A stretch of DNA of 47,371 bases from Candidatus Woesebacteria bacterium (lineage in GTDB: Bacteria; Patescibacteriota; Microgenomatia; UBA8517), in NCBI GenBank assembly GCA_020061305.1, contig JAGUYM010000014.1:1-47371 (forward strand), written 5' to 3'. This document shows, piece by piece, positions 4,600 to 26,785 of this stretch. The position numbers were made by a program, and so were the translations under genes. How positions within the stretch are numbered: position 1 is the first letter of the stretch; the number at the start of each line of letters is the position of its first letter. The notes beneath the pieces are model-generated. The model was not told where the DNA came from. It ran no database searches and saw only the letters and a list, made by a program, of their open reading frames with translations.

Positions 4600-4624
4600 A
4601 GTTATTTTTATTTAAGATTTTTCG

Positions 4625-4783: not shown

Positions 4784-4785
4784 AG

Positions 4786-5031: not shown

Positions 5032-5045
5032 AGTTATTAGGTAAC

Positions 5046-5105
5046 AAAAAAGGGGCTGTAACTTCTAAATACACGCGAGTGCGTATACTCAGAAGCCACA
5101 GCCCC
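5046..5105 (-). terminator. Long intrinsic terminator/attenuator hairpin in the leader of the core operon
   Basis: On the minus strand a 25-bp stem (GGGGCUGUGGCUUCUGAGUAUACGC-ACUC-GCGUGUAUUUAGAAGUUACAGCCCC) whose non-Watson-Crick positions are all G-U, followed by U6. Confidence 0.8.
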
Positions 5106-5256
5106 GATCGTTTCGTTAGGCTTTACTTCCTAAATCTATAATCATTCAAACAAATTTAGAGTATTAAGTCAAGTTAACTTTTGCTCACATTATCTCCACT
5201 TCTGATTGTTTCTGGTTGTTATTTCTTATTTCGTCTGAGATTGGTAAAATATCCCT

Positions 5257-5387
5257 AACGACCTAAACCCAGTAATGGGCATGGTTAAACAAGTCCTCGT
5301 GAGCAATAAGCTCTCCCTAGAGCGCTCACGAGGCTGTCTCCCGAAAGGGTGGCAGGTGGTGCAAACCATCGCTGGGGGGAGCTTTTT
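5257..5387 (+). ncRNA. Candidate structured ncRNA of unknown class
   Basis: Four hairpins, three GNRA loops (GUAA, GAAA, GCAA), CCUAAA/CAUGG receptor-like internal loop, 13-bp loop-to-3' pairing, upstream TGGTAAAAT -10, downstream U-run. Confidence 0.65.
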
Positions 5388-5395
5388 GGTTTGAT

Positions 5396-5471
5396 TTGAC
5401 AATCTCCCTTCAATGAAGTTAATATGCAACACCTCTAGGTTAAGTTATTAAAAATTGCCTAGAAGGAGGTG
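5396..5471 (+). promoter_or_regulatory. Sigma70-type promoter and hairpin-sequestered strong RBS
   Basis: TTGACA at 5396-5401, candidate -10 about 5419-5425; CACCTCTAGG (5430-5439) pairs with CCTAGAAGGAGGTG (5458-5471). Confidence 0.55.
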
Positions 5472-5475
5472 AAAA

Positions 5476-6348
5476 ATGATAATGAAACACAAAAACAAAT
5501 CTCGAATAATCCCTGCCGTCCTTTTCCTCTTTGTGCTTATTGTTCTGGGGGTTGTGCTTGTTCCTCGGTTATTAAATCAATCTAAGGTAGAGCTATCGTT
5601 GCGAGAGAGTGCAAAAGACAAAGAAGTAGTCGAACTCTTGGCAACCATGAGTGAGAACCCCAATAAAGACTCTCAGGAGTATCAAGAGGCTCAACAGAAA
5701 TTTTGTCTGTTAACTGCGCGCCCAGTTGTCGAAAGGGAAAAAGCTATCGCTAATATCCGTGAGTTCCTAGGTATGTCTGATATACCTGTAGAATTCCTCT
5801 GTAGTCGATTTAATAACAAGCCTGACGAGAGTGGAACTGATTATAATAGTCCTGCCTCTGAACATTACGAAGCTGCCAGGTTTGGTTTCACTATCGATCC
5901 TAAGACTAATTACATTGTTGAGGTTGGTGAAGCAGAGCGTCGTTGGGGGACAAAAGACGATGGCACGCGCTGGTTCGACAATATGCCTGAATACGACAAT
6001 ACTCCTCGCTATACCACCAAGGAGCAAATTCGTAAGGTTGCAGAGGACTTCATGATTAAGCACAAGGACATTTTTGGTGTTGATATCACTAAAATGACTT
6101 ATGAGTTTGAAGGCACAAAACCAGGCAATTTCTTTGTGAAGTGGTATGACTATACCAAACCTTTCACCAAGGAGTTTGAGGAATGTGGAGATGCTGATAA
6201 GACCCGTGAAGGCGCTTATCAGAATGATCAGGGTGTCTGGTGTCTCAAGACTAAGTCGACTCGTTACCCAATGGTTAGTCTCACCATTACCCAAGGCGGA
6301 CAAATAGCTGTCTATGACAACGAAGGCTGGGATATTGAAAAGCTATAA
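5476..6348 (+). CDS. Membrane-anchored/secreted hypothetical protein
   Basis: N-terminal basic + hydrophobic segment, paired Cys, SD AGGAGGTG. Confidence 0.85.
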   Translation: MIMKHKNKSRIIPAVLFLFVLIVLGVVLVPRLLNQSKVELSLRESAKDKEVVELLATMSENPNKDSQEYQEAQQKFCLLTARPVVEREKAIANIREFLGMSDIPVEFLCSRFNNKPDESGTDYNSPASEHYEAARFGFTIDPKTNYIVEVGEAERRWGTKDDGTRWFDNMPEYDNTPRYTTKEQIRKVAEDFMIKHKDIFGVDITKMTYEFEGTKPGNFFVKWYDYTKPFTKEFEECGDADKTREGAYQNDQGVWCLKTKSTRYPMVSLTITQGGQIAVYDNEGWDIEKL

Positions 6349-6538
6349 CGCGGATTCCTCAACACAGCCCCAACAAGGTTTCTGAAGCTAAATAAGCTAA
6401 TCTTATGCCACCCCAGGCACGAAAGCCTCACACAAGCCGCTACGCGCGGTCATGGGTGCGTTCACCAGTCTGTTCTCTTACAGTTTTCTCACATATCTTG
6501 TATAATTAAGTTGAGCTTTACATAAGAGCAACGCTCAC

Positions 6539-6564
6539 CTGCCCTTTTGTAGAGGGCAGTTTTT
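6539..6564 (+). terminator. Terminator-like hairpin between a -10 box and the OLD-family gene
   Basis: CTGCCCT-loop-AGGGCAG + TTTTT, downstream of TATAAT at 6501-6506. Confidence 0.65.
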
Positions 6565-6581
6565 GTAAGCGAAAGATTAAA

Positions 6582-8450
6582 ATGAGAATTAAAAAGGTTC
6601 GGATAAATAACTATCGTTCAGTCCAGAATTCTGGAGACATTTATCTTGAGGAAAAGGTCACTATTCTTGCTGGAAAGAATGAGTCAGGGAAGACGGCCAT
6701 TTTAGAGGCGCTTGAAGATTTTGATAAAGATAAGGAAATTCGGAAAGAGGCTAAACCTATTTTTAACGAGGAAGCCGTATCACAGGTAGCAGTTACCTTT
6801 ACATTATCCGCAGATGAAGTAAATCCTTTATTACAGACAATCGGATTAGAGGGTAAAGAAGAAAAATCTTGTGACCTTACCATTACTAAGACATTTCCAA
6901 AAACTTATGATCTCGATGGTGACACATCGAAATGGCTGAATGGAAAATTAGACGGTCAAGCAAATGAAACCAGAAAGGCTATAAAAGGAAAAGCATCTTC
7001 TATTTCGTCAGCTCTGAAAAAAAATGAGTCAGTTGGCTTGGCTTTTCCAGAACTTGATTTTAGTGATACTGCGTCGCTAGTAAAGCAATTAACGGATTTT
7101 CAACAACAATTAACTCCGCTCTTGCCTAAGATTGAAGATGAGACACAGAGGAATGCTGCCACTCAAGATTTAGCCGAAGCTGTAAAGTTAGCCCAACAAC
7201 TTCAGGCAACTCTTGATCTAGTGAGGAAATTTACAGACGCGCTGGTCAAATCGACCCCCAATTTTATCTACTTTGACTCTTTTGAGAATCTTTTACCGTT
7301 TCAAATTCCTTTAGCTGAAGCCAAGAAAAACAAGGCGGTGCTAAATTTCGCTAAAATTTCTGAGATAGACCTAGATCTGCTTCTTAACGCAGAACGAACC
7401 CGACAGCAAAACATCAACTACTTAAGTCGTAAATCGACAACGATTACGGGAGATTTCTTGGACTTTTGGAATCAAGATAAGGTTGAACTTGAAGCGATGC
7501 TTGACGGAGATAATTTGGTATTTGGCTTTGTTGAAGAGGGTAAAAGTGAAAAGTTCAGCATGCAGCAACGAAGTAAGGGCTTCCAATGGTTTCTCTCTTT
7601 TTACATCCAGCTCAAGCTTCATTATGAGTCTGGCACACAAAATTACCTTCTGGTTGACGAACCTGGGCTTTATTTGCATGCTAAGGCACAAAGAGATGTT
7701 CTGAGTGTTCTAGAGGATCGTTCAGCCAAGATGCCTGTCATTTTCTCCACACATTCTCCTTACTTGCTCGATCCCGACAAGTTGGATCGGGTGCGTTTAG
7801 TTTTTAGAGGGCGAGAGGATGGGACGACTGTTGAATCGAAGATTCACAAAGTGTCAGACAAGGAAACCTTAACCCCTATCTTGACTGCAATAGGACTTGA
7901 AATAACAAGTGGAATTACCAATCCTGACAAACTCAATAATGTGGTGGTTGAGGGACCCTCCGATTGGTATTACCTCACATCTTTTAAAACTATCCTAGAT
8001 GATGGGCAGTTAAACTTCATTTACGGTGGCGGTTCAGGAAATATGCCAAAAGTGGGAACCATCCTACATGGTTGGGGTTGCAAAGTGCTATACCTTTACG
8101 ATAGTGACCAGGGTAAGAAGGATGGAGAGAAAAACCTAACTAAAAGGTGGTTAGTTGAAAAAGCACAAATCAAGGCGGTTTCGGATAGTGATGGCGTGCG
8201 GATCGAAGATTTGTTTACCCAAGAAGACTTTATAAATCATGTTTTAGAAGACAGCTCAAAAACTTATAAATCCAGCAACTCAGAGTATGTCACCAAAGCA
8301 AAAGCCGATAAAGTTTTATTAGCCAAAAAGTTCTTATCCAGAGCTACTGAAATGAAAGATAAACTCTCAAAGGATACCAAAGAAAACTTTAAGAAAGTAT
8401 TCGAAGTTCTAATTAAAGAGTTTTCTAGTGAGGAAAAAGCGAAGGTTTAG
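6582..8450 (+). CDS. OLD-family ATP-dependent endonuclease (ABC-type ATPase + TOPRIM)
   Basis: INNYRS, Walker A GKNESGKT, RSKG signature, LLVDEPGLYLH, STHSP, TOPRIM VVVEGPSD and YDSD. Confidence 0.85.
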   Translation: MRIKKVRINNYRSVQNSGDIYLEEKVTILAGKNESGKTAILEALEDFDKDKEIRKEAKPIFNEEAVSQVAVTFTLSADEVNPLLQTIGLEGKEEKSCDLTITKTFPKTYDLDGDTSKWLNGKLDGQANETRKAIKGKASSISSALKKNESVGLAFPELDFSDTASLVKQLTDFQQQLTPLLPKIEDETQRNAATQDLAEAVKLAQQLQATLDLVRKFTDALVKSTPNFIYFDSFENLLPFQIPLAEAKKNKAVLNFAKISEIDLDLLLNAERTRQQNINYLSRKSTTITGDFLDFWNQDKVELEAMLDGDNLVFGFVEEGKSEKFSMQQRSKGFQWFLSFYIQLKLHYESGTQNYLLVDEPGLYLHAKAQRDVLSVLEDRSAKMPVIFSTHSPYLLDPDKLDRVRLVFRGREDGTTVESKIHKVSDKETLTPILTAIGLEITSGITNPDKLNNVVVEGPSDWYYLTSFKTILDDGQLNFIYGGGSGNMPKVGTILHGWGCKVLYLYDSDQGKKDGEKNLTKRWLVEKAQIKAVSDSDGVRIEDLFTQEDFINHVLEDSSKTYKSSNSEYVTKAKADKVLLAKKFLSRATEMKDKLSKDTKENFKKVFEVLIKEFSSEEKAKV

Positions 8451-8455
8451 TTTAG

Positions 8456-10255
8456 TTACACCTCTTTGGTAACCAGGACTTCTTCTCCTAACATGTCAAT
8501 GATTTTGACTGCCACTTTGGTTGGTTTTTCTGTTATCTCAAGCTCGTATTCTCCTTTGACCAGATCGCTTTGTTTCTCAGGAACATCCGAGAACTCAATC
8601 TTGAAAACTTCACCATCGTAATTTGTATTAACCAGGACAACATCGATCATTGATCTAAAATCTGGTATTTTCTTCTGCAATAATCCTGGTTCAAGTTCTA
8701 AGCGTTTAATGATGGTGGGGGAGATAAAGGATGTAATCTTGATCTTTGCCTTATCCTTGCCTGCTCTGGTAATTTCGACTTCTGCCCTAGAAGGTTCATA
8801 GCTGACAAAGTTTTTGTCCTTGAGATCGAAGACGATAAATTGTCTCATGCGCTTGTTGGTGCGAGCGTCTTTGTGGGGTTGTTTTTTATCCCATTCTTCA
8901 ACCCATGAGTCAACCTTTGTCTCTCTACCGAGGCAGATAACAACGATGTCTCTGTCTTCTTCTGGTCGTTTACCTAGCTCGTCTTTTATTAGCTGGAGAT
9001 CTAGGAGGGTAAGTGGGTGGTTAAAGTCGATAATTTTCACTAACTCGCCACTATCCCTTAAGCCGTCAAAAAAGGTTTCTGTTTTTGTCCTGGTAATACC
9101 ATATTGCTGGATTGCTAACTCTTTTGCCTCGGTTTTAAGAACTCTTAAGTCGTAGTTATTAACCTTATAAACTCCAAAGGACTTACTTATTTGACCATCA
9201 AGGAGTTTCTTCTTCTGTTCTTTGATGATTTTCTGCAATCTATGGCTTGTTTGTTGAATCGCACCTTTATTGATATCTACACCCACCCACCGTCTACCTT
9301 CTTGTTGGGCGACGGCACAAGTTGTCCCCGATCCAATAAAACAATCCAATACTAGACCGTTGTTTGGGGAAGATGCTTTAACGATTCGCTCAAGAAGCGA
9401 TTCTGGTTTTTGAGTAGCATAGTTAGTTTTTTCAATTGCATTTCCTTGAACGGGATTAATATCGCTCCACACATCACCTGGGTTTTTTCCAGATTTTTCT
9501 AGTTCTTCTGCCTCAACTTCATATCGAGCTTCACCCCTTTTAGCTCTAGCAATTGTTTCTGGATTGTATGGAACTCTAACAGGATCGAGATCGAACTGAT
9601 ACTTGTCGCTCTTAGAATAAAAAAGTATGTTCTGGTGTTTTCTTCCCCATCTGTCGTTTCCGCTTGCACCCATGAAGTAATTCCAAACGATGTCGTTTTG
9701 AAAGTTGTCTTCGCCGAATACCTCATCCATTAAGACTCTCATGTAGTGGGTCATGTGATAGTCCAAATGGACATAAATACTACCTGTCTCGGATAGAAGT
9801 TCCTTGAGGAGTATTAACCGCTCATACATAAATTGGAAGTATTCATCTCTCTTCCAAATATCCTCATACATTGTTTGTTGAATTATCGATTCGCTATCTT
9901 CTTCAATTTTTCCTAAGTTTTTAAGTCCTCTCAGTTCAACCTTGCGCATGTAGTCTTTATTACTGGCGAAAGGAGGATCGATATAAATAAGATCGACCTT
10001 GCCTCTGAAACCAAGTTCTAGGAGGGAGGCGAGGACTTCTTTGTTGTCGCCGTGGAAGAGGAGGTTATACCAGTTCTTTTCTAGCTTGCTATATTCAGGC
10101 ACTTTGAGAGCTTCTTTGTCTCCAAAACTCTCGGTAAGTTGCGTGGGATAGCCTGTGACGAATTCTAGGGGTTTCTTATTAACCCAAGTCAGCATTGGTC
10201 TGCCGTTGGGTGTGCCGATCTTAATTTTTTTGTTTGTGTCGTTTGTCATAGTCAT
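8456..10255 (-). CDS. Type III-like R-M DNA methyltransferase (Mod, beta class)
   Basis: IYIDPPF precedes LDCFIGSGTT; TQKPESLLERI; ATG at 10255 overlaps the res stop (ATGA). Confidence 0.9.
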   Translation of the reverse strand: MTMTNDTNKKIKIGTPNGRPMLTWVNKKPLEFVTGYPTQLTESFGDKEALKVPEYSKLEKNWYNLLFHGDNKEVLASLLELGFRGKVDLIYIDPPFASNKDYMRKVELRGLKNLGKIEEDSESIIQQTMYEDIWKRDEYFQFMYERLILLKELLSETGSIYVHLDYHMTHYMRVLMDEVFGEDNFQNDIVWNYFMGASGNDRWGRKHQNILFYSKSDKYQFDLDPVRVPYNPETIARAKRGEARYEVEAEELEKSGKNPGDVWSDINPVQGNAIEKTNYATQKPESLLERIVKASSPNNGLVLDCFIGSGTTCAVAQQEGRRWVGVDINKGAIQQTSHRLQKIIKEQKKKLLDGQISKSFGVYKVNNYDLRVLKTEAKELAIQQYGITRTKTETFFDGLRDSGELVKIIDFNHPLTLLDLQLIKDELGKRPEEDRDIVVICLGRETKVDSWVEEWDKKQPHKDARTNKRMRQFIVFDLKDKNFVSYEPSRAEVEITRAGKDKAKIKITSFISPTIIKRLELEPGLLQKKIPDFRSMIDVVLVNTNYDGEVFKIEFSDVPEKQSDLVKGEYELEITEKPTKVAVKIIDMLGEEVLVTKEV

Positions 10256-12834
10256 TTTTGGGTTTGGTAAATCCAATTAAAGACTGGCGTTACTTTACCA
10301 AACACCGATTCACCTTCCTCTAATAGCAGGAGTTCATATTTAATTTTATCAGGATTTATCGCCTCTAGTTGTTTCATTTCTTTCTCTGCCGCCTCGTTTC
10401 TGTATGGCTTACCTTTGACTTCGACGATGAGTGATTTACCATCCTTCTTTCTAATCAAAAAGTCGGGTGTATAAGAGTGCCAATCTCCTTTATTGTCTTT
10501 ATATTCAAATGCAAAGTCAGTTTTCTCTCTATCGGTCAGCGCTCCTGTAAAGTAAATATCATCGATATTATCTGGGTCTTCGCCGAGTTTGTCCAACATT
10601 TGTTCAAAAAAGGCTCGTTCGTCTTCTGAGTCAAAGTTGTAAGGGTCATAGTGGAAGCCAAACAAAGGCATCTGTCCAGCCTTCTTTTTGTAGGCGTCGG
10701 TGTCCAAGACATACTTTTCAAGGTTGTCCTTATTGACCCTAATATGGGTTACATAGGATGTCTTGCCGTCTTCGACTTCTTCCTCAAATCCTTTGGTTTT
10801 AATCAGCGCCAGAGCTTCCTCAACAGTCTCGGTAGTAACTTTGTATTTGATAACCTGTTTTTCCAGCTGTAAACGGACAAGCTCTAGGTCGACTGCAGAC
10901 ATCTCCCCATCTGGGTAAAGAGGAGTAAGGAGCTTATAAACCTCTAGAGAGTCCAGGCGATAAGTGTGGGCAAGCAAGACTGCTGCCTGGTATAAATCAA
11001 CCTTCACATCTTTGGGTTTTGATTTTTCACTATCAACCTCAACCAGGACGCCTTTCCTTTGGGTCTTGGACATGGTGTAAATAGTCTTCTCAAGCCCTTC
11101 TACGGCGTCAGATTTGGGCTTCTCGACTCTCAAGGCGGTAGATGTATCGTCTTCGGGGATGATCTTTTGGATGAGCTTCTTGATAACGACTGGTTCGATC
11201 TCTAGCTTTTTGAGAGTTATTTTGACGGGATAAGTGTCGGTTTTGGCACGATTCAGGTCATCCAAGCCTTCACCAAATGTTTCCTGGAGCTGGCGATCTA
11301 GCACCGAGACATTGGCTTTGGAGAGATAAATCTTAGCTTTTTTAGTATTGCCGTTTACCTGCCTTAAACACCTGCTGGCTGCCTGAAGCACGAAGTTGTT
11401 GCTTGATGAGAGTTTCCTGGCAAGCGCAGTAGCAAATAAGGATAGGCAATTCCACCCTTCAGTGCCTTTATTGACCAGCAAGAACACTCTGTAGGGTAGG
11501 TGCGGGTCATTAATGCGGTTATCAAATAGATCCTTGATGTCTTCTGGCGATTTATTATGGACTGGCAAGACCACTGAGGGATCAAGTTTCAGGGAGATAA
11601 GAGTCTGTTCGACGATTGGTTTAGCTTTATCCAAGTCATCAACCTGAGGAAAGTATATTGCCAGCTTTGCATATTCGCCGTTATTAACTCTCACATCTTT
11701 GTATTCTTGAAAAAAGTCTTTAACAATATCGATAACAAAGTCTTCCTCTGAAACCTCTTTATAAGCAACAATATTGCCTCGGACTTCCTTGAGAATGCCA
11801 TCTTCAATGCCCTGGGAAAGCCCATACCAGTAAATAACATCACGCAGAAGTTGTCTCTGGAAGTAGGGCGTGCCTGTAGTATTAACAACCGCCAGAAGGT
11901 TAGTCTTTTCGCTGATGTAGTTAATGGTTTGGCGCACTCGTTTGAGATCCTCAGCTAGGGCTTGTCCGTAAGTGTGGTGCGCTTCGTCAGAAAAGACTGC
12001 CAGATGAGGAAGAGAGGTGATAGATTGAAGGCGCAGATTGGCAACAAGTTCTTTGGCTTCTTCTAGCCCTAAGCTCAGTTGTGTGCCGAGGAAGGATTTG
12101 GGAATGCTGTTTTTCTGCAGTCTGATTTTCTCTGTATTAGTAACAATGACATTGAAAGAACTGCCTCGAATAACAGGAATGTCCTTCTCACCGTCCCTGG
12201 TGTAGGTAAACTTCACATTAGTGACAAATGACTTATAGAAGCGCGTTGGTAGGATCTTGTCATAGGGAGTATCAGCAATTTCTTTTAATGCTCCTAGAAT
12301 GGTTTTCCCAGGTGCAAACACCAGGGCGTTTCTGACAAAGATGCCGTCCTTCTCCTGATATTCCAGAGCCATCGCAAACTCAGTGGCAATGATAGAGGCA
12401 ACCAGAATTGTCTTGCCAGCTCCCATTGCTAAGGCAAGAATATAGCTTGGATATGGAAGAGTTAGGGTTTCTCTTAATGCTTCTAGCCTGTATTTCTTGA
12501 CAAACACATCGTTGGTTCTGACCTTATCAATGATGGAATCTAGTCCGCCTCCTGCCAGCAAGAGGTCGGTTAAATCCTCCTCTGATAAAGAAATGCCTAG
12601 TGCCTTTAATAGTTCTTTTCCTTGAAAATATTCCTTGTAAAGATCGAAAATGTTTGGTGTGTTTTTGACTAAGCGCAAATACCAGTAAGTTTCTAACGCC
12701 TCAAATTGCGCTTGTCTTAGAAAATTATTTCTATTGAAGTTTAGGATGGTTGCAATAACAGGGTAGGAGGAGGAATATCCCTGCTGTCTCCAGTTAATAA
12801 CATCTGATTTTAATTGTTGATATAAGTTGTTCAT
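10252..12834 (-). CDS. Type III restriction enzyme Res subunit (SF2 helicase + PD-(D/E)xK nuclease)
   Basis: AMGAGKT, DEAHH, EGW, QAASRCLR; C-terminal TPDF...IVEVKG. Confidence 0.88.
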   Translation of the reverse strand: MNNLYQQLKSDVINWRQQGYSSSYPVIATILNFNRNNFLRQAQFEALETYWYLRLVKNTPNIFDLYKEYFQGKELLKALGISLSEEDLTDLLLAGGGLDSIIDKVRTNDVFVKKYRLEALRETLTLPYPSYILALAMGAGKTILVASIIATEFAMALEYQEKDGIFVRNALVFAPGKTILGALKEIADTPYDKILPTRFYKSFVTNVKFTYTRDGEKDIPVIRGSSFNVIVTNTEKIRLQKNSIPKSFLGTQLSLGLEEAKELVANLRLQSITSLPHLAVFSDEAHHTYGQALAEDLKRVRQTINYISEKTNLLAVVNTTGTPYFQRQLLRDVIYWYGLSQGIEDGILKEVRGNIVAYKEVSEEDFVIDIVKDFFQEYKDVRVNNGEYAKLAIYFPQVDDLDKAKPIVEQTLISLKLDPSVVLPVHNKSPEDIKDLFDNRINDPHLPYRVFLLVNKGTEGWNCLSLFATALARKLSSSNNFVLQAASRCLRQVNGNTKKAKIYLSKANVSVLDRQLQETFGEGLDDLNRAKTDTYPVKITLKKLEIEPVVIKKLIQKIIPEDDTSTALRVEKPKSDAVEGLEKTIYTMSKTQRKGVLVEVDSEKSKPKDVKVDLYQAAVLLAHTYRLDSLEVYKLLTPLYPDGEMSAVDLELVRLQLEKQVIKYKVTTETVEEALALIKTKGFEEEVEDGKTSYVTHIRVNKDNLEKYVLDTDAYKKKAGQMPLFGFHYDPYNFDSEDERAFFEQMLDKLGEDPDNIDDIYFTGALTDREKTDFAFEYKDNKGDWHSYTPDFLIRKKDGKSLIVEVKGKPYRNEAAEKEMKQLEAINPDKIKYELLLLEEGESVFGKVTPVFNWIYQTQK

Positions 12835-12836
12835 AT

Positions 12837-13499
12837 TTATAGATTCTCGGTTAGAAATCGCTGAACTCCCTCTAGCATTGACCTAACATCTTCTGCTTTA
12901 TACTCATCAAATTTACCATGATCGGCACTATCCCTAATTGCTTTCCATGCTTGGATTTGTTTCTGCATTAAACGGCTATAGATTTCCTTATCGGCAAGTT
13001 TAGTGTTGAGCGATCCAATGTCATCTCCTGTTTTGACATCAACAGAATTTTTTTGTGCCAGTTGTCTTAAACCATTCTCCAACACCGCTCCTGTAAGAGA
13101 AGCTGCGGAATCCTTATAGTTATTGCCTAATAAATGCTGAGCCATCTCAATGAAGTCTGTAAAAATCTCTGCGCTTACCAAGTCTCTTACCCTTGTGAGA
13201 AAACCCAGCCCTAAGTCTTCTTTTAGCGCTTTTAATATTCCTATACCGTGGTCAACATCGGAGGGGAAAGCGCTTTTTACTTCTTCTACAAAGTTTTTGT
13301 AATAAGAACTGCTTTCACCACAAACCATTGAAATAAAGTTTTGGGAGTTGTTTTTCCATTCATGAAAGGAGGCACTGTTCACTCTATCTGGTGCTACGAC
13401 TCTATCAGAACTTCTGTTAAAACGGGTTGCAGCTACGCCTTGTGCTTTTTGCAAAAGCTGTTCAGTTCGTTCGATGAGTTTTTGTGTTACTGAATTCAT
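12837..13499 (-). CDS. HEPN-domain (DUF4145-like) protein, putative RNase
   Basis: SAASLTGAVLE helix and RxxxxH motif RDSADH. Confidence 0.75.
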   Translation of the reverse strand: MNSVTQKLIERTEQLLQKAQGVAATRFNRSSDRVVAPDRVNSASFHEWKNNSQNFISMVCGESSSYYKNFVEEVKSAFPSDVDHGIGILKALKEDLGLGFLTRVRDLVSAEIFTDFIEMAQHLLGNNYKDSAASLTGAVLENGLRQLAQKNSVDVKTGDDIGSLNTKLADKEIYSRLMQKQIQAWKAIRDSADHGKFDEYKAEDVRSMLEGVQRFLTENL

Positions 13500-13500
13500 A

Positions 13501-13683
13501 TCATATTTTCATTAATTTTTCTATATCTTCTGGTCGATAACGCCTATCGCCGCGCTCGTTTACTCTTATAGCTTTTAGTTTCCCGCGCTTGTCCCAGCGC
13601 CTCAAGGTCTCCACATGCACATTAAGGATTTCAGAAGCCTGTTTTATTGTTAGTAACTTTGGTAGTGCCTTATCTTTGCTCAT
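13501..13683 (-). CDS. MerR-like/excisionase-family winged HTH
   Basis: LLTIKQASEILNVHVETLRRWD.RGKL...GDRRY. Confidence 0.9.
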   Translation of the reverse strand: MSKDKALPKLLTIKQASEILNVHVETLRRWDKRGKLKAIRVNERGDRRYRPEDIEKLMKI

Positions 13684-13684
13684 A

Positions 13685-15493
13685 TTAATGTTGGCTGTTA
13701 AGCCTGGTTGCTATGGCTTCCTGCTCGTCATACAGAGGTTTATCCTGATCGATCATCCTCTGTTCGGCAGCGCTTAACCACTGATTAGCCTCCATCTTGG
13801 AAACGATTGCAGAGATATTAGCAATTCTTACTCCAATTATCTCATTGATTCTATCAACATCAGTTTTGTTTTTTTCGTAGAAACTTGAGTTGTTTTTGAG
13901 ACTTGACCAGCTTGGCTGAATTTCTCGTAGCCTTGATAGGCTTGTTTTCCAAGACTCAATATCCTCTTTTTTATAGTTGGGGGGAATGTAACCAGCAGCA
14001 TGGACAACAATAAGCTGCGTAGGACATCCATTTAGGCTTCCTTGGACTTCTGCTATACCTATGTCATCAAACTTTTTATCAAACCATACATTTTTGGCAT
14101 CTGTTGAATCTCTTTCGAGATAATCCTCAACTAACTCGTCAGCAGTATAGTAACCCTCTAATGACCATTCCCACACATAGCTATTCCAATACCCAGCTTT
14201 TGACATTGCACTTGAGACGACATCGTATGAAGCCTGTTGTTGAGTAGTGTTATTCTTTAATAGTGATTCTGCTCGTATTTGTGCAGATTTATCAAGTTTA
14301 GGCTCGTATTTTACTGGCGTTGCACCATTTTCTTTGCGTTTTTCGTTAAGTAGCTCGACAAATCTATTTCTGTCGATTGTTGGTTTTACCGTGTCTGACA
14401 AATCATTTGTTGCATCGTGCCAGTTCTTATCAAGTTTGCCCTTCTGTTTTTCCAAAGGTAGAACTAGGCGGATGTCTTTTATTGGAGCAAAGCCAATTTC
14501 TCTTGAATCGGAACTACCTTTTCGGTTGTCGCCCATAGCAAAAATTGCGTCTTGGGGGACGGTAACTGCCTGACATTCCTTTAGAAACTTTTCTCCGAAT
14601 GTCGAGCGGGGTTTGGCAATATAAGGCTCTTTTTGTGGTTCGTTATTAAGGTAAACAATGCCGTCTCTTAGTTCTATTGTGTCTCCAGGAAGCCCGATGA
14701 TTCTTTTTAATAGTCCCGCTGGGTTTGCGCCATCTCTACTTGTGAGTTCTCTTGTCGCGTCATTTTCCCAGGTGATAATGTCACCTCTACCTAGAGTATG
14801 TCCTAGATATCTTTTTCCACCAATAACGATGCCATTCGGATAGGGCAAGAAGCCAGCAGTAGTAATAATCTCCTTGGCAAGATCCTTGTTGCTTTTACCC
14901 TTTGTTCCTTTGTCCCAAGTCGGATACATAGAGCCAGTTCCTACGATATTAATATCCTCTGTAATATAACCGAGCTGGTTCGCGGCCAAAGCGCCAACAG
15001 ATACATAGCCAACAACCCAGATGGGTAAAATAATTGCACAAACCAATACAAGTGCTACTAATTTCGTTAAAACTAGCTTTGGACGCAGGGATTTCAATAA
15101 ACCTCTTAATTTCTCTTGTTTTAGTCTCTTTACGATTTCAAGTGGTTTGATGATAACGACCAATAAATAGAGTGGAAGAGTGGCTAGCGCAAAGAATAGC
15201 TTAATTAGGAATAAAAAGATGTTTTGTTTCTTCTGCGATCTCTTAGATAAAAGTTGTGCGGTAAAACCTATCACACCAATTAAAAAGGCAAGGCAACCGA
15301 GCAATATTAACCCTAGGAGAGAGAAGGCGAAGACATCTGGTGCTTTATCAAAAAGCTCCTTCCTGATGCCCAGAACATAACCCATAATTGCAAAGACGCC
15401 TATAATGCATGCTAGCCAGATGAAAATAGAGACCTTGGTGATCCTGTTGAGAAGTTTCCCTTTGTCTAGTTTTAACGATAATTTCTTCGGCAT
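13685..15493 (-). CDS. Signal peptidase I (S26) fused to a CAP/SCP-like extracellular domain
   Basis: Four TM segments; GSMYPT (Ser), KRIIGLPGD (Lys), GDNRKGSSDSR; CAP-like LNEKR...PVKYEPKLDKSAQIRA...FDDIGIA. Confidence 0.85.
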   Translation of the reverse strand: MPKKLSLKLDKGKLLNRITKVSIFIWLACIIGVFAIMGYVLGIRKELFDKAPDVFAFSLLGLILLGCLAFLIGVIGFTAQLLSKRSQKKQNIFLFLIKLFFALATLPLYLLVVIIKPLEIVKRLKQEKLRGLLKSLRPKLVLTKLVALVLVCAIILPIWVVGYVSVGALAANQLGYITEDINIVGTGSMYPTWDKGTKGKSNKDLAKEIITTAGFLPYPNGIVIGGKRYLGHTLGRGDIITWENDATRELTSRDGANPAGLLKRIIGLPGDTIELRDGIVYLNNEPQKEPYIAKPRSTFGEKFLKECQAVTVPQDAIFAMGDNRKGSSDSREIGFAPIKDIRLVLPLEKQKGKLDKNWHDATNDLSDTVKPTIDRNRFVELLNEKRKENGATPVKYEPKLDKSAQIRAESLLKNNTTQQQASYDVVSSAMSKAGYWNSYVWEWSLEGYYTADELVEDYLERDSTDAKNVWFDKKFDDIGIAEVQGSLNGCPTQLIVVHAAGYIPPNYKKEDIESWKTSLSRLREIQPSWSSLKNNSSFYEKNKTDVDRINEIIGVRIANISAIVSKMEANQWLSAAEQRMIDQDKPLYDEQEAIATRLNSQH

Positions 15494-15543
15494 ACCTCAA
15501 CAAAAGTATACTAAAAACAGCTAATAATTGATATACTGTTTCT

Positions 15544-15708
15544 ATGGGTAGAATTAATGCAAAGTGGCACTTAGCCAACAAAATGCCTAAAAACCCAACC
15601 TTGGATCAGAGAGTTGCCTGGCACATTGATCATGCGAGGAATTGCTCTTGCCGTCCTTTGGGTGGAAAAATTCTGGAAGAGATAAAAAGGCGAGGATTAA
15701 AGGTTTAA
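15544..15708 (+). CDS. Small His/Cys-rich hypothetical protein (54 aa, not in the ORF track)
   Basis: MGRINAKWHLANKMPKNPTLDQRVAWHIDHARNCSCRPLGGKILEEIKRRGLKV. Confidence 0.65.
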   Translation: MGRINAKWHLANKMPKNPTLDQRVAWHIDHARNCSCRPLGGKILEEIKRRGLKV

Positions 15709-16107
15709 GAAACGGTTAACTTCTTTGGTCGTGTATTCTGGGTACTCTAGGTAATTTATCCAGTCAGTCGTCCGAAATTGTACCCATTTCTCGAGCCAAA
15801 TTTGACGAGAGGCGTAAAAAGCTATCTTGTCAAACGGTTTTATCCAGTCATATCGGGCTTTTCTGCCCTTTAGCTCCAAGTTCTGAAGTGCCATCTTCAA
15901 AAGTAGCCGTTTTTCGTGGGCTTCAGAACTCTCAAAGACTTTTCCAGCGTTTTCAGATAGTTTTAGCAGGCAAGATGAGGTCACATAGTATTCCTCGTCA
16001 GCAAATTGTAGTTTCTCAATTTTCTTGTTGATTGCCTTCTGTTTTGCCCGATATTCTTTTCGTTTTTTCTCATAGTAGCTCTCAGTAATGCTCCCCTGCA
16101 GAGTGAA
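15697..16107 (-). pseudogene. C-terminal remnant of an older LSR fused at the att junction to the displaced tail of the new element's LSR
   Basis: GSITESYYEKKRKEY...LLKLSENAGKVFE...EKRLLLKMALQNLELKG aligns by eye with EKITPEFYSRKFKQY...LYELSQRAKELY...EQRSLIRFIFATLTVDEG of the intact LSR; no catalytic domain. Confidence 0.85.
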
Positions 16108-16258
16108 TTAGCACAGGTTGACCAGATGGGGCAAGGGGTCTTGCGTCCTCAATTGCGTCTAAGAGAAAATAAAGTTTTTCTTTGCCTGTCATAGTGTTTC
16201 ATTACATCTTTAATCTTAGTTATTATATTTTATCAATTTTTGATAGAATAGTCTTGAT

Positions 16259-17182
16259 ATGCCGATTTATAAACAGACCGATAGCAAGCTAATTGCTATC
16301 AAGGAAAAGAAAGTTGGCTTGGAAAAAACCCTGCAAACCTTAGTTGAAGCTAACTTAAATGATGTTTTTAGTTTGAGCTTCATCGCTACCGAGTTTCCCT
16401 TAAACAATCTTCGGATTGATACGCTAGCTTTTGATGAAGAAGCTAAGGCGTTTGTGGTTATTGAATATAAGCGGGATAAAAATTTTACCGTGATTGACCA
16501 GGGTTACGCCTATCTCGCTTTAATGCTAAATAACAAAGCAGATTTTGTCCTTAAGTATAACGAGAAGACCAAGAAAAACTTGAGAAAGGACGATATTGAT
16601 TGGTCGCAATCTAAGGTAATGTTTGTTGCCCAGTCATTCACAAAGTATCAGCAGGAAGCTATCGGGTTTCAAGATTTGCCGATTGAACTTTGGGAAGTAA
16701 AAAAATATGACGAGGATTTGGTTTCTTTTAACCAAGTAAGGGCGTCTGAAAAAAGCGAGAGCATAAAAACCATTACTAAGAACAAAGATATTGAACGGGT
16801 GTCTAGGGAAATTAAGCAGTATTTCGTTGAAGACCACATTAAACCCACTTGGAGCAAGGCTAAGGAGTTGTTTGATGAGTTTTCCCAGCGAGTTTTGGAA
16901 CTTGACCCTCGTTTTGAGATACATCCTGTTAAGTATTACATAGGCTTTAACATTGAGAATAAAAATGTAGTAGCCGTTAAGGTAAGGACTACAAAATTAT
17001 TACTTGAGCTTTTGCGAGTTCAACCCAAAGACCTCAAAGACCCAGAGAAAAGGGCTAGATATAGAAAAAATAGCTTTGAATACTATAACAAACACATTAC
17101 GCAGTTTGACATCAACAATGAGGAAGATATTGATTATGCGATGTCTCTTGTAAAACAGATTTATAAGATTTTTGCTGAATGA
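16259..17182 (+). CDS. NucS/RecB-like PD-(D/E)xK endonuclease with DUF5655-like C-terminal domain
   Basis: EKTLQ...RIDTLAFD...VVIEYKR...Q...Y nuclease motifs; C-terminal KYYIGF. Confidence 0.75.
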   Translation: MPIYKQTDSKLIAIKEKKVGLEKTLQTLVEANLNDVFSLSFIATEFPLNNLRIDTLAFDEEAKAFVVIEYKRDKNFTVIDQGYAYLALMLNNKADFVLKYNEKTKKNLRKDDIDWSQSKVMFVAQSFTKYQQEAIGFQDLPIELWEVKKYDEDLVSFNQVRASEKSESIKTITKNKDIERVSREIKQYFVEDHIKPTWSKAKELFDEFSQRVLELDPRFEIHPVKYYIGFNIENKNVVAVKVRTTKLLLELLRVQPKDLKDPEKRARYRKNSFEYYNKHITQFDINNEEDIDYAMSLVKQIYKIFAE

Positions 17183-17793
17183 GGATGAAAAAAATACTTA
17201 TAGTTGGGATTTTGTTTGTTGCTGCTACTATCGGTGTTATTACTTACCAATTCGGGAAACAAAAAGGTATTTCCCTCAATACAAATTCCAAACCCATTCA
17301 GCAAGAGGAAGGTGTGTTTAATTGCCCGTATAGCACAAAAGGCGGTATATACACCGAGTATGCGACTTTAGCCAATGAGGTAATGGTTGCTGGAAAACCA
17401 CAGTTAATAGAAAATCCAGAAGTTGTCAAAATGAGTGAACCCTTTAATCTGGTTGAGTTTGAAAAAGACCTATACAAGCTATCAACAGATAAAGGTTGGG
17501 ACGAAAGAAAATTTGATGTGGACGATGATGGGAAGGAAGAACGAATAATAAGTGCAAATGTGGCAATGAACCACACCCCACATATCGCACTAATCCTGAA
17601 AGACAACCGTGTTATATTCAGGGCTGAGGGGGCAAATATCTGGATTGAGGACGATTACGAAGGGCGAGGATTTACACTTCACAAGACGATTGATTGGAAC
17701 ATTGGAGAAAGCGAGACGGTTAGATATATTCCAAAAGATGGTGGTTTTATGCCTGTCTGGAAGCAAAAGGCTTGTTGGGTTCATTTTGAATAG
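17179..17793 (+). CDS. Membrane-anchored hypothetical protein
   Basis: N-terminal signal anchor; DVDDDGKEE calcium-loop-like motif. Confidence 0.8.
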   Translation: MRMKKILIVGILFVAATIGVITYQFGKQKGISLNTNSKPIQQEEGVFNCPYSTKGGIYTEYATLANEVMVAGKPQLIENPEVVKMSEPFNLVEFEKDLYKLSTDKGWDERKFDVDDDGKEERIISANVAMNHTPHIALILKDNRVIFRAEGANIWIEDDYEGRGFTLHKTIDWNIGESETVRYIPKDGGFMPVWKQKACWVHFE

Positions 17794-17983
17794 CAAATGC
17801 GGGCATTGGTTGGCTTAATCCAAGATTTTCAAATGCAATTTTAAGGTCGCTTAGGCTTATATCAAACTCTAGCTTGTGGTTGCAGAACAAATCCTTTAGG
17901 AGGAACCAGATTGGACAACTCAACAGAAATACTTGATATTTCGATAAAAAATCGACTTCTATTAACTTACCAACTGCCTTCAT
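17747..17983 (-). pseudogene. Possible further LSR C-terminal scar plus displaced tail (…CPIW|FLLKDLFCN…)
   Basis: PIW motif and DNA similarity to the tRNA junction; F at the same register as the other tails. Confidence 0.45.
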
Positions 17984-18017
17984 AATTCCTCTTTATTCAT
18001 AACCGAACTCTTTTCAT

Positions 18018-18048
18018 TGAAAGAAAAATACATCCTTTCTAGTACTAC
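18018..18048 (+). promoter_or_regulatory. Putative ECF sigma promoter, copy 1
   Basis: TGAAAGAAAA-N14-GTACTAC; identical architecture at 18514-18544. Confidence 0.65.
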
Positions 18049-18070
18049 TGGTAGAAAGGAGGTGAAAAAC

Positions 18071-18448
18071 ATGAATAAAGCAATTATAGCATTAACAGCT
18101 TTAACACTCGGAGCAGGAGTATTATTTGCTAGCGTACCGAACGCATTGGCTTATAGAGGTGACCCAAATGTCCAGGGGCCTAATTACTCGCCCGAACGCC
18201 ATGAAGCAATGGTTAAGGCTTTTGAGAAAATGGATTACAACGCCTGGAAAAACCTAATGCAAGGTAGAGGTAGGATAACTCAAGTTATCAATGAAGACAA
18301 CTTTGCCCTTTTTGCCAAGATGCACCAGCTTAGGCTTGAGGGTAAAACCGACGAAGCCAACCAGATTCGTCAAGAATTGGGTCTTGGACTTCGCGATGGC
18401 GGAGGATCCGGACAAAGAATGGGGATGGGACGAAACTGGAATAAGTAA
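18071..18448 (+). CDS. Small secreted protein with Gly/Met/Arg-rich tail
   Basis: SD GAAAGGAGGTG, signal peptide ending ALA; start 18071 rather than 18017. Confidence 0.85.
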   Translation: MNKAIIALTALTLGAGVLFASVPNALAYRGDPNVQGPNYSPERHEAMVKAFEKMDYNAWKNLMQGRGRITQVINEDNFALFAKMHQLRLEGKTDEANQIRQELGLGLRDGGGSGQRMGMGRNWNK

Positions 18449-18470
18449 GGTTCCTATCTCTATAAACGCC

Positions 18471-18493
18471 AACCCCGATTTTTAGTCGGGGTT
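18471..18493 (+). terminator. Hairpin after the secreted protein gene
   Basis: AACCCCGAT-loop-GTCGGGGTT. Confidence 0.6.
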
Positions 18494-18513
18494 CTGGTAT
18501 GCAACAAAACAAG

Positions 18514-18544
18514 TGAAAGAAAATATAGCCAACAATTGTACTAC
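18514..18544 (+). promoter_or_regulatory. Putative ECF sigma promoter, copy 2 (autoregulatory)
   Basis: TGAAAGAAAA-N14-GTACTAC, 10 nt before the ATG at 18554. Confidence 0.65.
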
Positions 18545-18553
18545 AATTGTGAC

Positions 18554-19102
18554 ATGTCGGAACACCCTATGCTTACAGACGAAAAATTGGTTGAACTGGT
18601 GCGCAGTAAAGATAAAGAGAATTACGCCGAGATTATCAATCGATACAAAAACAAATTGATAAGATATGCATTGTATCTAACTGGAGATGATGACAAAGCG
18701 GCCGACGTTGTTCAGGAGTCTTTTATCAAGGCCTATGTCAATTTAAATGGCTTTGACATTAAAAAAAAGTTCTCAAGCTGGATTTATCGTATTGTCCACA
18801 ATGAAGCTATGAATGTTTTAAACAAGGATAAGAAACAACTCCCTCTAAAAGAGGGTGTCGATTTTGACAGCGGTATTAATCTAGAGGATAATTTTGTCAA
18901 AAAAGAACTGCAAACAAAAGCTCAAGATTGTTTAAAGCGACTACCAGTTCTTTATCGGGAACCACTAACTCTTTATTTTTTAGAGGAGAAGTCATATGAG
19001 GAAATCAGCGATATTTTAAGAATGCCTGTCGGCACAGTCGGGACAAGAATCAATCGGGCTAAAATTTTAATGAAAGAGATATGTCAAAAAGCAAAAAAAT
19101 AA
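18554..19102 (+). CDS. ECF RNA polymerase sigma factor (SigW/RpoE-like)
   Basis: DVVQESFIKAY, FSSWIYRIVHN, SYEEISDIL..PVGTVGTRINRAK. Confidence 0.93.
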   Translation: MSEHPMLTDEKLVELVRSKDKENYAEIINRYKNKLIRYALYLTGDDDKAADVVQESFIKAYVNLNGFDIKKKFSSWIYRIVHNEAMNVLNKDKKQLPLKEGVDFDSGINLEDNFVKKELQTKAQDCLKRLPVLYREPLTLYFLEEKSYEEISDILRMPVGTVGTRINRAKILMKEICQKAKK

Positions 19103-19605
19103 CACCAACCAAACAAAAAAAGACTGACTTTGAAAAAGAGGTCATGACTAAGATAAAAAGGGGTGAAATAACCATGAAACCCAAATGGTTTTTTGTAGTC
19201 GGTTCTTTGATGGCAGGAGCTGGATTAGTGGGGGCAAGCATCGGAGCAATATTTTTAGTCAACCTCACCTTGTTTATTTTGCGAAAACGAGGCCCAGGCA
19301 TTATGAGACTGGAGTTGATGCTGACGAGTTTCCCATGGTGGATACCACTATTGGCAATAATAGGTATTGTCGCTGGAATCTGGCTTTTGAAAAAATATGA
19401 CTTTTCTTACAAGAAAAACTTTTTGCTAATTATAGCCGTTTTTATCTCTTCAATCGCCATTGCCGCTTGGTTTATTGACTATCTTGGTCTTAATGAAACC
19501 TGGTCAAGACATAGCCCAACAAGAAAATTTTATCAACAGTTTGAACGACAGGACAATAATTTTCCACAAGGTCGTGGAAACCGTTTTTATCTCAAGAGAT
19601 TATAG
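19081..19605 (+). CDS. Membrane protein, probable anti-sigma partner
   Basis: Overlaps the ECF gene; FEKEVMTKI N-terminus followed by three TM helices. Confidence 0.6.
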   Translation: MSKSKKITPTKQKKTDFEKEVMTKIKRGEITMKPKWFFVVGSLMAGAGLVGASIGAIFLVNLTLFILRKRGPGIMRLELMLTSFPWWIPLLAIIGIVAGIWLLKKYDFSYKKNFLLIIAVFISSIAIAAWFIDYLGLNETWSRHSPTRKFYQQFERQDNNFPQGRGNRFYLKRL

Positions 19606-19667
19606 TTGTAAAATAAAGATCAATAGCCTCTTAATCGAATGCAAATAATTCTGTATACTTAATCTAT

Positions 19668-25054: not shown

Positions 25055-25097
25055 TTAAGCGTAGTGTAGCACAAATAAAACATCTTTCTATTTCTGA

Positions 25098-26201
25098 TTA
25101 GATCCAACCCATTAAAATAAACGCTCCCATACCTAGCATGACAACCCCAGCAATGAGATGAAGCGTCTCCAGGCGTTTCTTGCGAATCTCCTCGGCTTTT
25201 TGCGGATCAAAGCCTTTATAAACTGCTAAGGAAATGAGGACCATGGGAGAAACAAAGATCAGGTTATAAACAAGAAGATACAAAATTGCCTGCGTATCAA
25301 ATGACTTCTTTGCCAACATACCAAGAATAACAATATAAGGACCACCGGTGCATGGCAGTAAAAATAAACTTACCAAAAATCCAATGAAAAACGCCCCGAC
25401 TGGACCGGTTACGGAGTGAATAAGTTCTTTTAGTCTGGGTCTCCAAGATAAAGGCACTTCCATCAAAAAGCCCTTACCATACCAGAAATAATCCTTAAGA
25501 TTTAAAACCCCTAGGACAATAGCCACCCAACCTACAAATTTGAAAAATGTCCCTGACACACCACCAATACTAAGAGCTTTATATAACCCCAAACCCATCA
25601 AAAAGTAAGAAATGAAAATTGAGGCAGAGAAAGCCAATCCTGAACGAAAAGCTCTTCTGTAGTTTCCCGATGCTAAAATCGTCGTCATGAGAATAATCAA
25701 AACTGCAAACTCGCAAGGGTTAATCGCATCCACCAAACTCCCTGCCACAACAGCCGCCAATGTTAAATCCAAAGGCTTGTTACTTTCTTTAATTTCTACA
25801 ACTACTTGATTATCTTCTGGGATTTTATTCGTGCTTAAAAACTTGTCAGCTTCAGAAACAAAGTTGTCAATGATCGGTTTATCGCCTATCAAAACTTTCT
25901 TATCAATAATAACTGTCGGAACACCTCGGCTATTCTCATCTATTCCCAAACTGGCCAACATCTGGTTAAACAAAAGTGCATTATTGTGGTCAAAATAAAT
26001 TTCCATCTTTTCAACAGGATACTTATTAAATAGATCTCTTTTTTCAAAATACTCAAGCACTTGGGCGCAATGAGGGCATCCAGTACCGTAAAAAAAATAG
26101 ATTTTCTTTGTTTCCTGAGCCTTTGCCAGAATCGCCATCCCAAGAAAAACCAAAATAAATAGTAAGCCTGATACTATCTTTTTTAATAACATAGTTTTCA
26201 T
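25098..26201 (-). CDS. Glutaredoxin-like CxxC domain fused to a CcdA/DsbD-type TM domain
   Basis: GCPHC; DAINPC and LPCTGGPY membrane cysteines. Confidence 0.85.
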   Translation of the reverse strand: MKTMLLKKIVSGLLFILVFLGMAILAKAQETKKIYFFYGTGCPHCAQVLEYFEKRDLFNKYPVEKMEIYFDHNNALLFNQMLASLGIDENSRGVPTVIIDKKVLIGDKPIIDNFVSEADKFLSTNKIPEDNQVVVEIKESNKPLDLTLAAVVAGSLVDAINPCEFAVLIILMTTILASGNYRRAFRSGLAFSASIFISYFLMGLGLYKALSIGGVSGTFFKFVGWVAIVLGVLNLKDYFWYGKGFLMEVPLSWRPRLKELIHSVTGPVGAFFIGFLVSLFLLPCTGGPYIVILGMLAKKSFDTQAILYLLVYNLIFVSPMVLISLAVYKGFDPQKAEEIRKKRLETLHLIAGVVMLGMGAFILMGWI

Positions 26202-26785
26202 TTTTTGATTTTTATCTGATATCGAAATATTATGTGCCGCATATTCTCCAACTTCATCATCTGTTCATTTGTCAGGTGCTCAAAAAACTTCCGTATCGGG
26301 CGGATAGAATTACCATGAGCAACGATCAACACATTCAAGTAACTTCTCCGCATCATGTTCACTACATCTTTTATGAAGGAGAGAACTCTTTTTTCGACTT
26401 GCCTCATGCTTTCTCCTCCAGGAGGAGCTATGTTATAAGAACGATGGTAAATTAGATATAAGTCTGGATGTTCTCTTTTATATTTTTGCTTACTTTTTCT
26501 GGAAAGTGTTCCATAATCTCGTTCTATCAATCGGTCATCTACTACCACTTGCATTCGTGGATGATATTTTTTAATGTGTTTCAAAGTTTCCCTAGTTCTG
26601 GTTAGCGGCGAGGTGAAGGCCAGATCAATCTGTTTACGGGCAAGGTCCTTAGCTAACCGCTCCGCGTGTTTATGTCCCTCAGGACTAAGCTTTGAGTCAA
26701 CTCTACCAGTAAAAATACCCCTTCGGTTGTAGCAACTCTCACAGTGAGTTAAGACATAAATGGTTAAAGTTTTTTTGTTATTCAT
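26198..26785 (-). CDS. Histidine phosphatase / phosphoglycerate mutase-like protein with atypical THC motif
   Basis: LTHCESCYN, TSPLTRTRET, LIERDYG, PPGGES, AHGNSIR. Confidence 0.85.
   Translation of the reverse strand: MNNKKTLTIYVLTHCESCYNRRGIFTGRVDSKLSPEGHKHAERLAKDLARKQIDLAFTSPLTRTRETLKHIKKYHPRMQVVVDDRLIERDYGTLSRKSKQKYKREHPDLYLIYHRSYNIAPPGGESMRQVEKRVLSFIKDVVNMMRRSYLNVLIVAHGNSIRPIRKFFEHLTNEQMMKLENMRHIIFRYQIKIKK

Follow-up and report, generated by a model that had tools for sequence, protein, structure and literature searches.

The window analyzed here, a stretch of 47,371 nucleotides of Candidatus Woesebacteria DNA, encodes a tRNA-Asn (anticodon GTT) on its plus strand at positions 1884 to 1958, as called by ARAGORN and read in the sequence. 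The tRNA ends in an encoded CCA (1956-1958), and its 3' portion serves as the B arm in an attL. Overlapping it on the minus strand, at 1944 to 3548, is a gene coding for a large serine recombinase (LSR) of 534 amino acids. By Pfam the enzyme has an N-terminal Resolvase domain (PF00239, E 2.6e-19, residues 10-159), a Recombinase domain (PF07508, E 5.7e-17), and then a zinc ribbon (PF13408, Zn_ribbon_recom, E 3.5e-6, 27.7 bits against a cut-off of 25.3). Its reading frame ends ...PIW-LRE-stop, and these last five codons are tRNA DNA, the TGG being the reverse complement of the CCA. No phage-integrase domain was found by Pfam in the 10 ORFs scanned over 1944-15984; the tRNA-proximal gene is the LSR. 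Just past the tRNA lies the P' arm (1959 to 1995, plus strand), with an ATGGG at 1960-1964 that mirrors a CCCAT of the P arm and, in the tRNA sense, a hairpin (GGGACGC..GCGTCC) followed by TTTTG.

Domain scans place the cargo of this element, island 1, at 3601 to 15696. The cargo includes an Old/AriA-like ATPase (6582-8450), a type III methylase (8456-10276), a ResIII helicase-nuclease (10252-12834), a HEPN protein (12837-13499), and an S26 peptidase-CAP protein (13685-15493). With one LSR, an Old-like ATPase, and a type III restriction-modification system, island 1 is a mobile defence island. Metagenome contigs (runs X2 and X7) carry variants of the island without the HEPN gene (about 12837-13503) or without the S26 peptidase-CAP gene (about 13662-15482), the latter with 12 other bases in the gap.

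At the far end, on the minus strand at 15697 to 15798, is a P arm together with a remnant coding for a tail (W LEKWVQFRTTDWINYLEYPEYTTKEVNRFLNL stop), in frame with the LSR gene if the element is circular. Counted on the minus strand from the TGG as offset 0, the tRNA has its T-loop DNA, TTCGAAC, at offset 17 (plus-strand GTTCGAA, 1935-1941). The core of attL, GAGCCA (1953-1958), is found a second time as the attR core at 15793-15798, and counted from that copy the P arm has a T-loop look-alike, TTCGGAC, at offset 22 (plus-strand GTCCGAA, 15770-15776), where it codes for F-R-T. A preliminary description of the window had reported these two offsets, and both are as it stated. At 15783-15787 the P arm has its inner motif, that of the recombinase domain, CCCAT. 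Beyond the core, the minus strand at 15799 to 16106 holds the 3' end of another LSR gene, now a fossil (..DKIAFYASRQIW), which serves as the B' flank. No displaced tRNA 3' fragment was found at the far end of island 1; GAGCCA alone is repeated, and the look-alike is five out of register.

The flank beyond this junction (16106-15801) is homologous to a locus in a Levybacteria metagenome-assembled genome (MAG; L061, 3364-3669). The likeness ends at 15801/15800, and L061 then has a different tail. In contigs from three of the four metagenome runs compared (X2, X5, and X7), position 1959 is joined to 15802 with GC between them and 13,842 bases absent. These joins indicate that island-free strains exist, with breakpoints within GAGCCA. 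Contigs from the same three runs also have the 3' end of another tRNA-Asn joined at 15793 to GAGCCA and the fossil LSR flank. None of the contigs listed has a circular (attP) joint, a form that contigs would miss if it is rare. A genome of the same genus (G001) has 8.4 kb between tRNA-Asn and tRNA-Ser(GGA), versus 31.8 kb in the window. It has no counterpart for 1957-19650 and 25055-33741, which alone is insufficient to fix the end of the island. The region 15768-15798 is the P arm of the attR of a 13.8-kb island (about 1957-15798) inserted by the LSR at the extreme end of tRNA-Asn. That the site is an LSR attP arm, as first proposed from the window alone, is supported.

A 95-amino acid ORF spans the site (15697-15984, minus strand), and in its product DKIAFYASRQIW runs directly into LEKWVQFRTTDW. 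The upstream part of this ORF is the fossil LSR 3' end; the C-termini of 32 LSRs match 15703-16101. It is common to the window and L061 with 79% amino acid identity and flanks an island in both (DKIAFYASRQ[IA]W; L061 3364-3670). In metagenome contigs the fossil end directly adjoins tRNA-Asn. A full-length relative of the fossil LSR, of 518 amino acids, is found in attP form at another locus (L290). Because the fossil end abuts tRNA-Asn and flanks the island, island 1 formally sits in an older attL.

To place the LSR in its family, we scanned one genome per species and recovered 80 loci with relatives of the window LSR, nearly all titled as CPR/Patescibacteria MAGs. A full antisense tRNA-Asn is found at the end of the LSR gene in 43 loci and a tRNA-Asn 3' fragment in 15, while 12 have no tRNA there, eight were not aligned to the W codon, and two are at a contig end. 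The join between LSR and tRNA is invariably ...CC(C/T)AT(C/A) TGG CTC. Most of the 12 tRNA-less loci have an ORF that continues into a tail like LEKWVQFRTTDW..EYPEY.., which the window encodes to the left of 15798; this places attP across the 3' end of the LSR gene. Judged from these sequences, the free element would encode an LSR tail of about 33 amino acids, which integration would swap for tRNA codons (L-R-E-stop). A search for the P-arm module with an HMM built from nine tails (A1) found it in 121 of 401 sampled genomes of the CPR class (about 30%), a tally that, like the one for the C15-type LSR given below, takes in one unpublished genome (G105). Most of the matches are short open frames beside unrelated DNA and are therefore attR junctions. 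In 15 loci the LSR gene ends in only a tRNA-Asn 3' fragment (including L033, L035, L040, L048, and L054). Where the fragment sequence extends to the anticodon loop, its likeness to the tRNA ends there, with TTAC.. in place of TTAACAG, which would fit a tRNA split at that point by a different element.

We used 91 unique P arms to locate the crossover. The left flank (B') carries at most 0.3 bit per column. Conservation of the P arm begins at offset 2 and is strong at the CTC of offsets 3-5, with C in 79, T in 86, and C in 79 of the 91 arms; CTC is used at codon 1 in 72 of the 79 arms with a Leu codon there. Host flanks at attR often have TTG or CTG in place of TGG. Neither tRNA-Asn nor tRNA-Ser(GGA) of G001 has an encoded CCA (..GAGCAGG and ..CCGCCCC; L023 1010-1016 for the tRNA-Asn comparison), whereas both end in CCA in the window. 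Given where conservation starts, the TTG and CTG flanks, and the CCA-less tRNA-Asn of G001, the crossover falls within offsets 2-5 and the CCA is donated by the island.

The P' profile (61 arms), compared in mirror image with the P profile over offsets 6-17, gave a similarity of 0.616 at a centre of 4.5, and none of the seven other centres scored exceeded 0.32. This puts the dyad centre between offsets 4 and 5 from the TGG, that is, between 1953 and 1954 at one junction and between 15793 and 15794 at the other. Both junctions of island 1 have the same dinucleotide, GA, at these positions (1953-1954 and 15793-15794), and it is the probable central dinucleotide based on the sequence, the arm profiles, and the metagenome contigs. 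Over their inner 12 bp, P and P' form inverted repeats around the crossover, with CCCAT/ATGGG at positions 7-11 in both. Numbered from the centre of the mirror profile, the T-loop DNA occupies positions 13-19 of the B arm and the look-alike positions 18-24 of the P arm. The P' arm is without the mirrored heptamer (outer similarity 0.35), and no mirrored T-loop was found in the B' arms by eye or by column information content.

For the LI integrase, the site description in Rutherford 2013 (PMC3783163) places the zinc-ribbon motif at positions 16-24 of attP and 11-19 of attB and the base contacts of the recombinase domain at 9-11. The rule invoked in the preliminary description, a zinc-ribbon motif 5 bp further out in attP than in attB, is thus the published one as far as those sites go. 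The P and B arms appear to match the LI zinc-ribbon positions closely (18-24 and 13-19), with a numbering that may be off by one. As in the LI/A118-type sites of that description, the enzyme is a three-domain LSR, the crossover is a 2-bp one at the dyad centre, and an inner motif is at an equal place in attB and attP, here 7-11. Unlike those sites, the candidate distal motif of attB is T-loop DNA of a tRNA gene. LI/A118 as described there carries the distal motif in both half-sites, whereas here it is in one arm per site (B and P) with B' unconserved. The attP here also spans the 3' end of the LSR gene, and integration alters the C-terminus of the enzyme. By analogy, the LSR may read both the T-loop in attB and the look-alike in attP, a proposal for and against which we find the case evenly balanced.

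The look-alike is common among the P arms, with the consensus TTYMGRAC at half-site positions 18-24. Of the first 19 arms, 13 matched TTCGAAC in at least five of seven bases at offset 22, three did so at offset 21, and three at neither. The 12 tRNA-less loci were chosen without reference to the tail, and eight match at offset 22 (seven from the first set of arms and L090 by hand count). In the full set, 52 of 91 unique arms match at offset 22 by the same threshold and nine are exact, the 91 being relatives, most of them collected via an HMM containing the Phe, and not 91 independent events. Assuming equal base frequencies, our own arithmetic gives a chance expectation of about 1.3% per arm at a fixed offset. 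Among offsets 6-59, 22 is the best for 50 of the 91 arms; 17 fit offset 21 better than 22, and 75 have a Phe codon at offset 21. When the arms were grouped into 21 clusters (at most 12 mismatches in 57), 12 fit offset 22, one fits offset 21, and eight fit neither. The check suggested at the outset, for the motif at +22 across islands, thus gave a recurring motif, found also with a C15-type LSR and with Ser-type CGG cores.

Arms with other cores differ in the heptamer. The C15-type LSR, named after the contig with the second LSR of the genome, was found in attP form in one genome (G154) with a tRNA-Gln-type core, TGGCTG, and TCCGAAC at offset 22. This LSR shares 47% identity with the genome's second LSR, which in turn shares 27% with the window LSR. 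Arms with a CGG core, which fits tRNA-Ser, have TTCGAGC, TTCGATC, or TTCGTGC. Only one arm with a TGC core was found, and its heptamer is exact. CTG-core arms have TTAGGCA, a weak match. One C15-type locus with no tRNA (L248) has GCGAACC at the B-arm distance and is either an attP or a tRNA relic.

We compared the profile of 41 unique B arms with that of the 91 P arms. A shift of +5 ranks first of 40 shifts (0.497), followed by +18 (0.479), and in column permutation it has a p of 0.008 as a fixed prior shift and of 0.40 for any shift. The displacement of exactly 5 bp claimed in the preliminary description holds for island 1, but "exactly" is too strict for the family, given the 17 arms better at offset 21 and the eight clusters that fit neither offset. 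The best nine-column block pairs B 10-18 with P 13-21 at a shift of +3 (score 0.58), with a +5 block next, an order that reads like a tRNA-derived stretch with insertions of 3 and 2 nt. The L090 arm likewise resembles a tRNA end with an insertion, as 16 nt identical to tRNA-Asn antisense are followed by five extra nt and then ACTCGAA; its likeness to tRNA-Asn stops at the expected 24-25-bp edge of the half-site. The P arm might then be a decayed copy of the tRNA 3' end, from an ancestral site or illegitimate recombination, with indels accounting for the place of the look-alike and no present role in recognition. We consider this improbable. A neutral relic would be expected to have decayed, whereas LSRs with as little as 27% identity share the motif, which is kept in 121 of 401 genomes. 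A crossover 4-5 nt from the end of the tRNA also lets an LSR restore the gene without a tRNA copy.

It is also possible that selection acts on the protein. The heptamer encodes a conserved F-[R/G]-x of the tail peptide, and the site could be an attR P arm in which the heptamer is kept only as code for a functional C-terminal tail (W-L-x-x-W-x-x-F-[R/G]...W...Y-P-E), with the +5 likeness a coincidence. Alignment A1 has invariant L2, W5, F8, W13, Y19, and P20 (Phe at codon 7), and conservation of the tail reaches offset 62, past the att footprint and beyond any 25-bp half-site (W at offset 36, Y-P-E at 54-62). Almost all variation in the arms is at synonymous or conservative codon positions and tracks codon degeneracy (TTT/TTC; CGA/AGA/CGG). 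The permutation p of 0.40 for any shift, the CTG-core arms, in which F-R is kept but the DNA likeness is lost, and the absence of the motif from P' and B' point the same way. At the R of F-R-T, CGR is used over other Arg codons in five of nine lineages against a background of 36% (p 0.18). Synonymous bias is also present at the distal codons 13 and 16.

Codon choice near the heptamer argues for constraint on the DNA as well. Arg at codon 8 is encoded by CGA in 33 arms, AGA in 21, CGG in 13, AGG in four, CGT in one, and CGC in none (CGY in one of 72), against a background of 30% CGY among the Arg codons of LSR genes. Gly at the same codon is GGA or GGG only, with no GGY, and Arg and Gly exchange there while G25 and the purine at offset 26 stay fixed. 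Asp at codon 6 is GAT in 48 arms versus GAC in one, against GAC in 40 and GAT in 18 at codon 11. The preference for CTC at Leu codon 1 (72 of 79 arms) likewise favours a DNA reading. The DNA is also kept in arms with an altered frame or peptide. F-G-R arms keep TTCGGAC one base inward, at offset 21; T-R-I arms carry ACTCGAAT; and Ser-type CGG-core arms with TTCGAGC or TTCGATC code for F-R-A or F-R-S. The L090 arm has its tRNA sequence and 5-nt insert without the usual tail beyond W13. We hold a purely peptide-level explanation only tentatively. The dual coding first suggested for the site is borne out on the peptide side, where the heptamer encodes the conserved F-[R/G]-x, but the variation mostly follows codon degeneracy and the peptide alone could explain much of it.

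Synonymous constraint at offsets 20 and 26 names no reader. Offsets 20-28 could instead be read by a directionality factor or a host protein or could act as an RNA-level signal in the tail mRNA, and no excision factor was identified in island 1. We give this very little weight, as the position fits the zinc-ribbon footprint in the LI sites of PMC3783163 and no candidate partner or structure was found.

We also examined how widely related LSRs are associated with tRNA genes. Of the 401 genomes sampled from the class, 199 contain a match at E <=1e-40 to the genome's second LSR (contig C15). In 26 of the 30 C15-type loci retrieved, the LSR has an antisense tRNA at its 3' end or nearby, specific for Leu, Arg, Pro, Val, Gln, Trp, Gly, or Lys. 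Asn and Ser (L100) bring to ten the amino acids whose tRNAs have LSR relatives beside them, in agreement with the earlier proposal that many tRNA genes can be targeted. Two close LSRs at tRNA-Leu and tRNA-Lys diverge past offset 4, and the crossover is therefore at the same place in the tRNA, with the T-loop at a fixed distance. Selection against breakage of the tRNA would equally give a constant crossover position. At L238, a nested LSR fragment intervenes and the tRNA is about 1.1 kb away. The tail of the C15 LSR (TTTGGAC) was considered as a P arm and rejected, as it is a piece of the catalytic domain of another LSR (FGQSK joined to YYVD). The C15 LSR (L001 427-470) ends in ..TLTFGQSK, and in L237 and L238 the frame runs on into YYVD(S/N)LSEN.., the catalytic/helix-E region of another LSR. 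The C15 LSR clade seems to insert into LSR genes.

The window encodes a tRNA-Ser(GGA) as well (33741 to 33831, minus strand; ARAGORN and sequence); its T-loop reads TTCGAAC on the plus strand, at offset 17. The preliminary description paired it with a distal junction anchored at 29243, with TCCGAAC at offset 22. Both heptamers are present, the second at 29265-29271, but the anchor is TAA and not TGG, and in this register the tRNA-Ser junction (TGGCGG) and the arm (TAACTG) share no dinucleotide. The arm at 29243 to 29271 on the plus strand (TAA CTG AGT GTT TGG GAC GAT ATC CGA ACC) includes TGGGACGATATCCGAAC (pattern TGGGACGAT[A/T]TCCGAAC), which matches L073 at 17 of 18 bases, and to judge from this likeness it is a genuine P-arm relic of the family. 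That homology is the only justification for the offset-22 register. The sole block common to the two junctions is TAACTG, and the displacement there is 1 bp, not 5. The CTG core of the arm is in keeping with the tRNA-Gln type and differs from the CGG of Ser-type arms. No LSR gene was found in island 2, the only Resolvase-domain gene in the window being that at 1944-3548. A weak remnant of an LSR C-terminus (33660 to 33740, plus strand; 26 amino acids at 33660-33737; tblastn E 0.17 and 0.023) runs into tRNA-Ser(GGA). Because its arm is homologous to that of island 1 and it has neither an LSR gene nor a shared core, island 2 is not an independent second case; the claim of two independent islands fails, as the arms are homologous copies of one module. 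The cargo of island 2 (29373-33325) includes a trypsin-like protein matching the PADLOC candidate PDC-S45, an N6 methylase fused to a specificity domain, and a 317-amino acid protein without a family match that might be a nuclease. In G001 (L023 9261-9281) a 20-nt partial copy of the tRNA-Ser(GGA) 3' end (GCGGTAAGGGAGAGATTC) lies about 110 bp past the tRNA, in register and unshifted.

If the LSR reads both heptamers, its zinc-ribbon domain would, on the LI/A118 model, contact T-loop DNA in attB and, in attP, the look-alike located 5 bp further out. The recombinase domain would read acceptor-stem DNA and thereby choose the tRNA. The look-alike bases would also encode the F-[R/G]-x of a tail present only in the circular form, and integration would replace that tail by L-R-E-stop from the tRNA. 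More broadly, this may be the modular code of a common CPR serine-integrase superfamily, in which the zinc ribbon reads the universal T-loop and the recombinase domain the acceptor stem, while exchange of a 33-amino acid tail for a 3-amino acid stub acts as a possible switch of direction or stability. We regard this wider proposal as rather doubtful. If true, it would explain the spread of the family over tRNAs for at least ten amino acids.

According to the Islander database description (PMC4383910), tyrosine integrases usually target tRNA genes. Like the tyrosine-integrase islands presented there, these elements insert site-specifically in tRNA genes, carry defence cargo, and accrete in tandem at one tRNA. 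Unlike them, the enzyme here is a serine recombinase, and its crossover 4-5 nt from the 3' end leaves the tRNA unsplit. The junctions share only the 6-bp GAGCCA, with no displaced tRNA fragment, and the encoded CCA comes from the island. A literature search of titles and abstracts turned up no work in which a serine integrase targets the 3' end of a tRNA or recognizes the T-loop. In the integration-dependent immunity of mycobacteriophages, attP is inside a gene and the integrated and free forms differ in the C-terminus of its protein; the gene is the repressor and the recombinase a tyrosine integrase. In the elements described here, by contrast, the altered C-terminus belongs to the LSR itself.

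tRNA-targeting serine integrases are common in this CPR class, as the tallies for the C15-type LSR and the P-arm module show. Should the T-loop be the distal site of attB, they would form a natural series of integrases with one fixed anchor and varied inner-site specificity. This would bear on how serine integrases change target and on their retargeting as tools for genome insertion. It would also give a simple rule for locating the ends of defence islands in CPR genomes.

The DNA just past the tRNA, within the last codons of the LSR, forms in the tRNA sense a hairpin with a T run in 44 of the 61 unique P' arms (median z -3.5). The stems (L030-L109) differ among lineages by paired changes, AGCAGAGCC/GCTCTGCT and AACGGACGC/CGTCCGTT. 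From its sequence the hairpin looks like a terminator for the tRNA that is brought in by the island. The window's own P' hairpin (1959-1995) has a z of only -1.8 on folding, and a terminator scan of 1800-2200 (loop of at most 8, at least 5 T) found none. T-loop-like words are also found within LSR coding DNA, 50-110 nt upstream of the crossover (L069, L089, L094, L098, L104, and C15-type loci). In the window, TTCGAAC at 2009-2015 is coded as K-F-E-L; elsewhere TTTCGAAC is coded as T-F-E and GGCTCGAAC as V-G-S-N.
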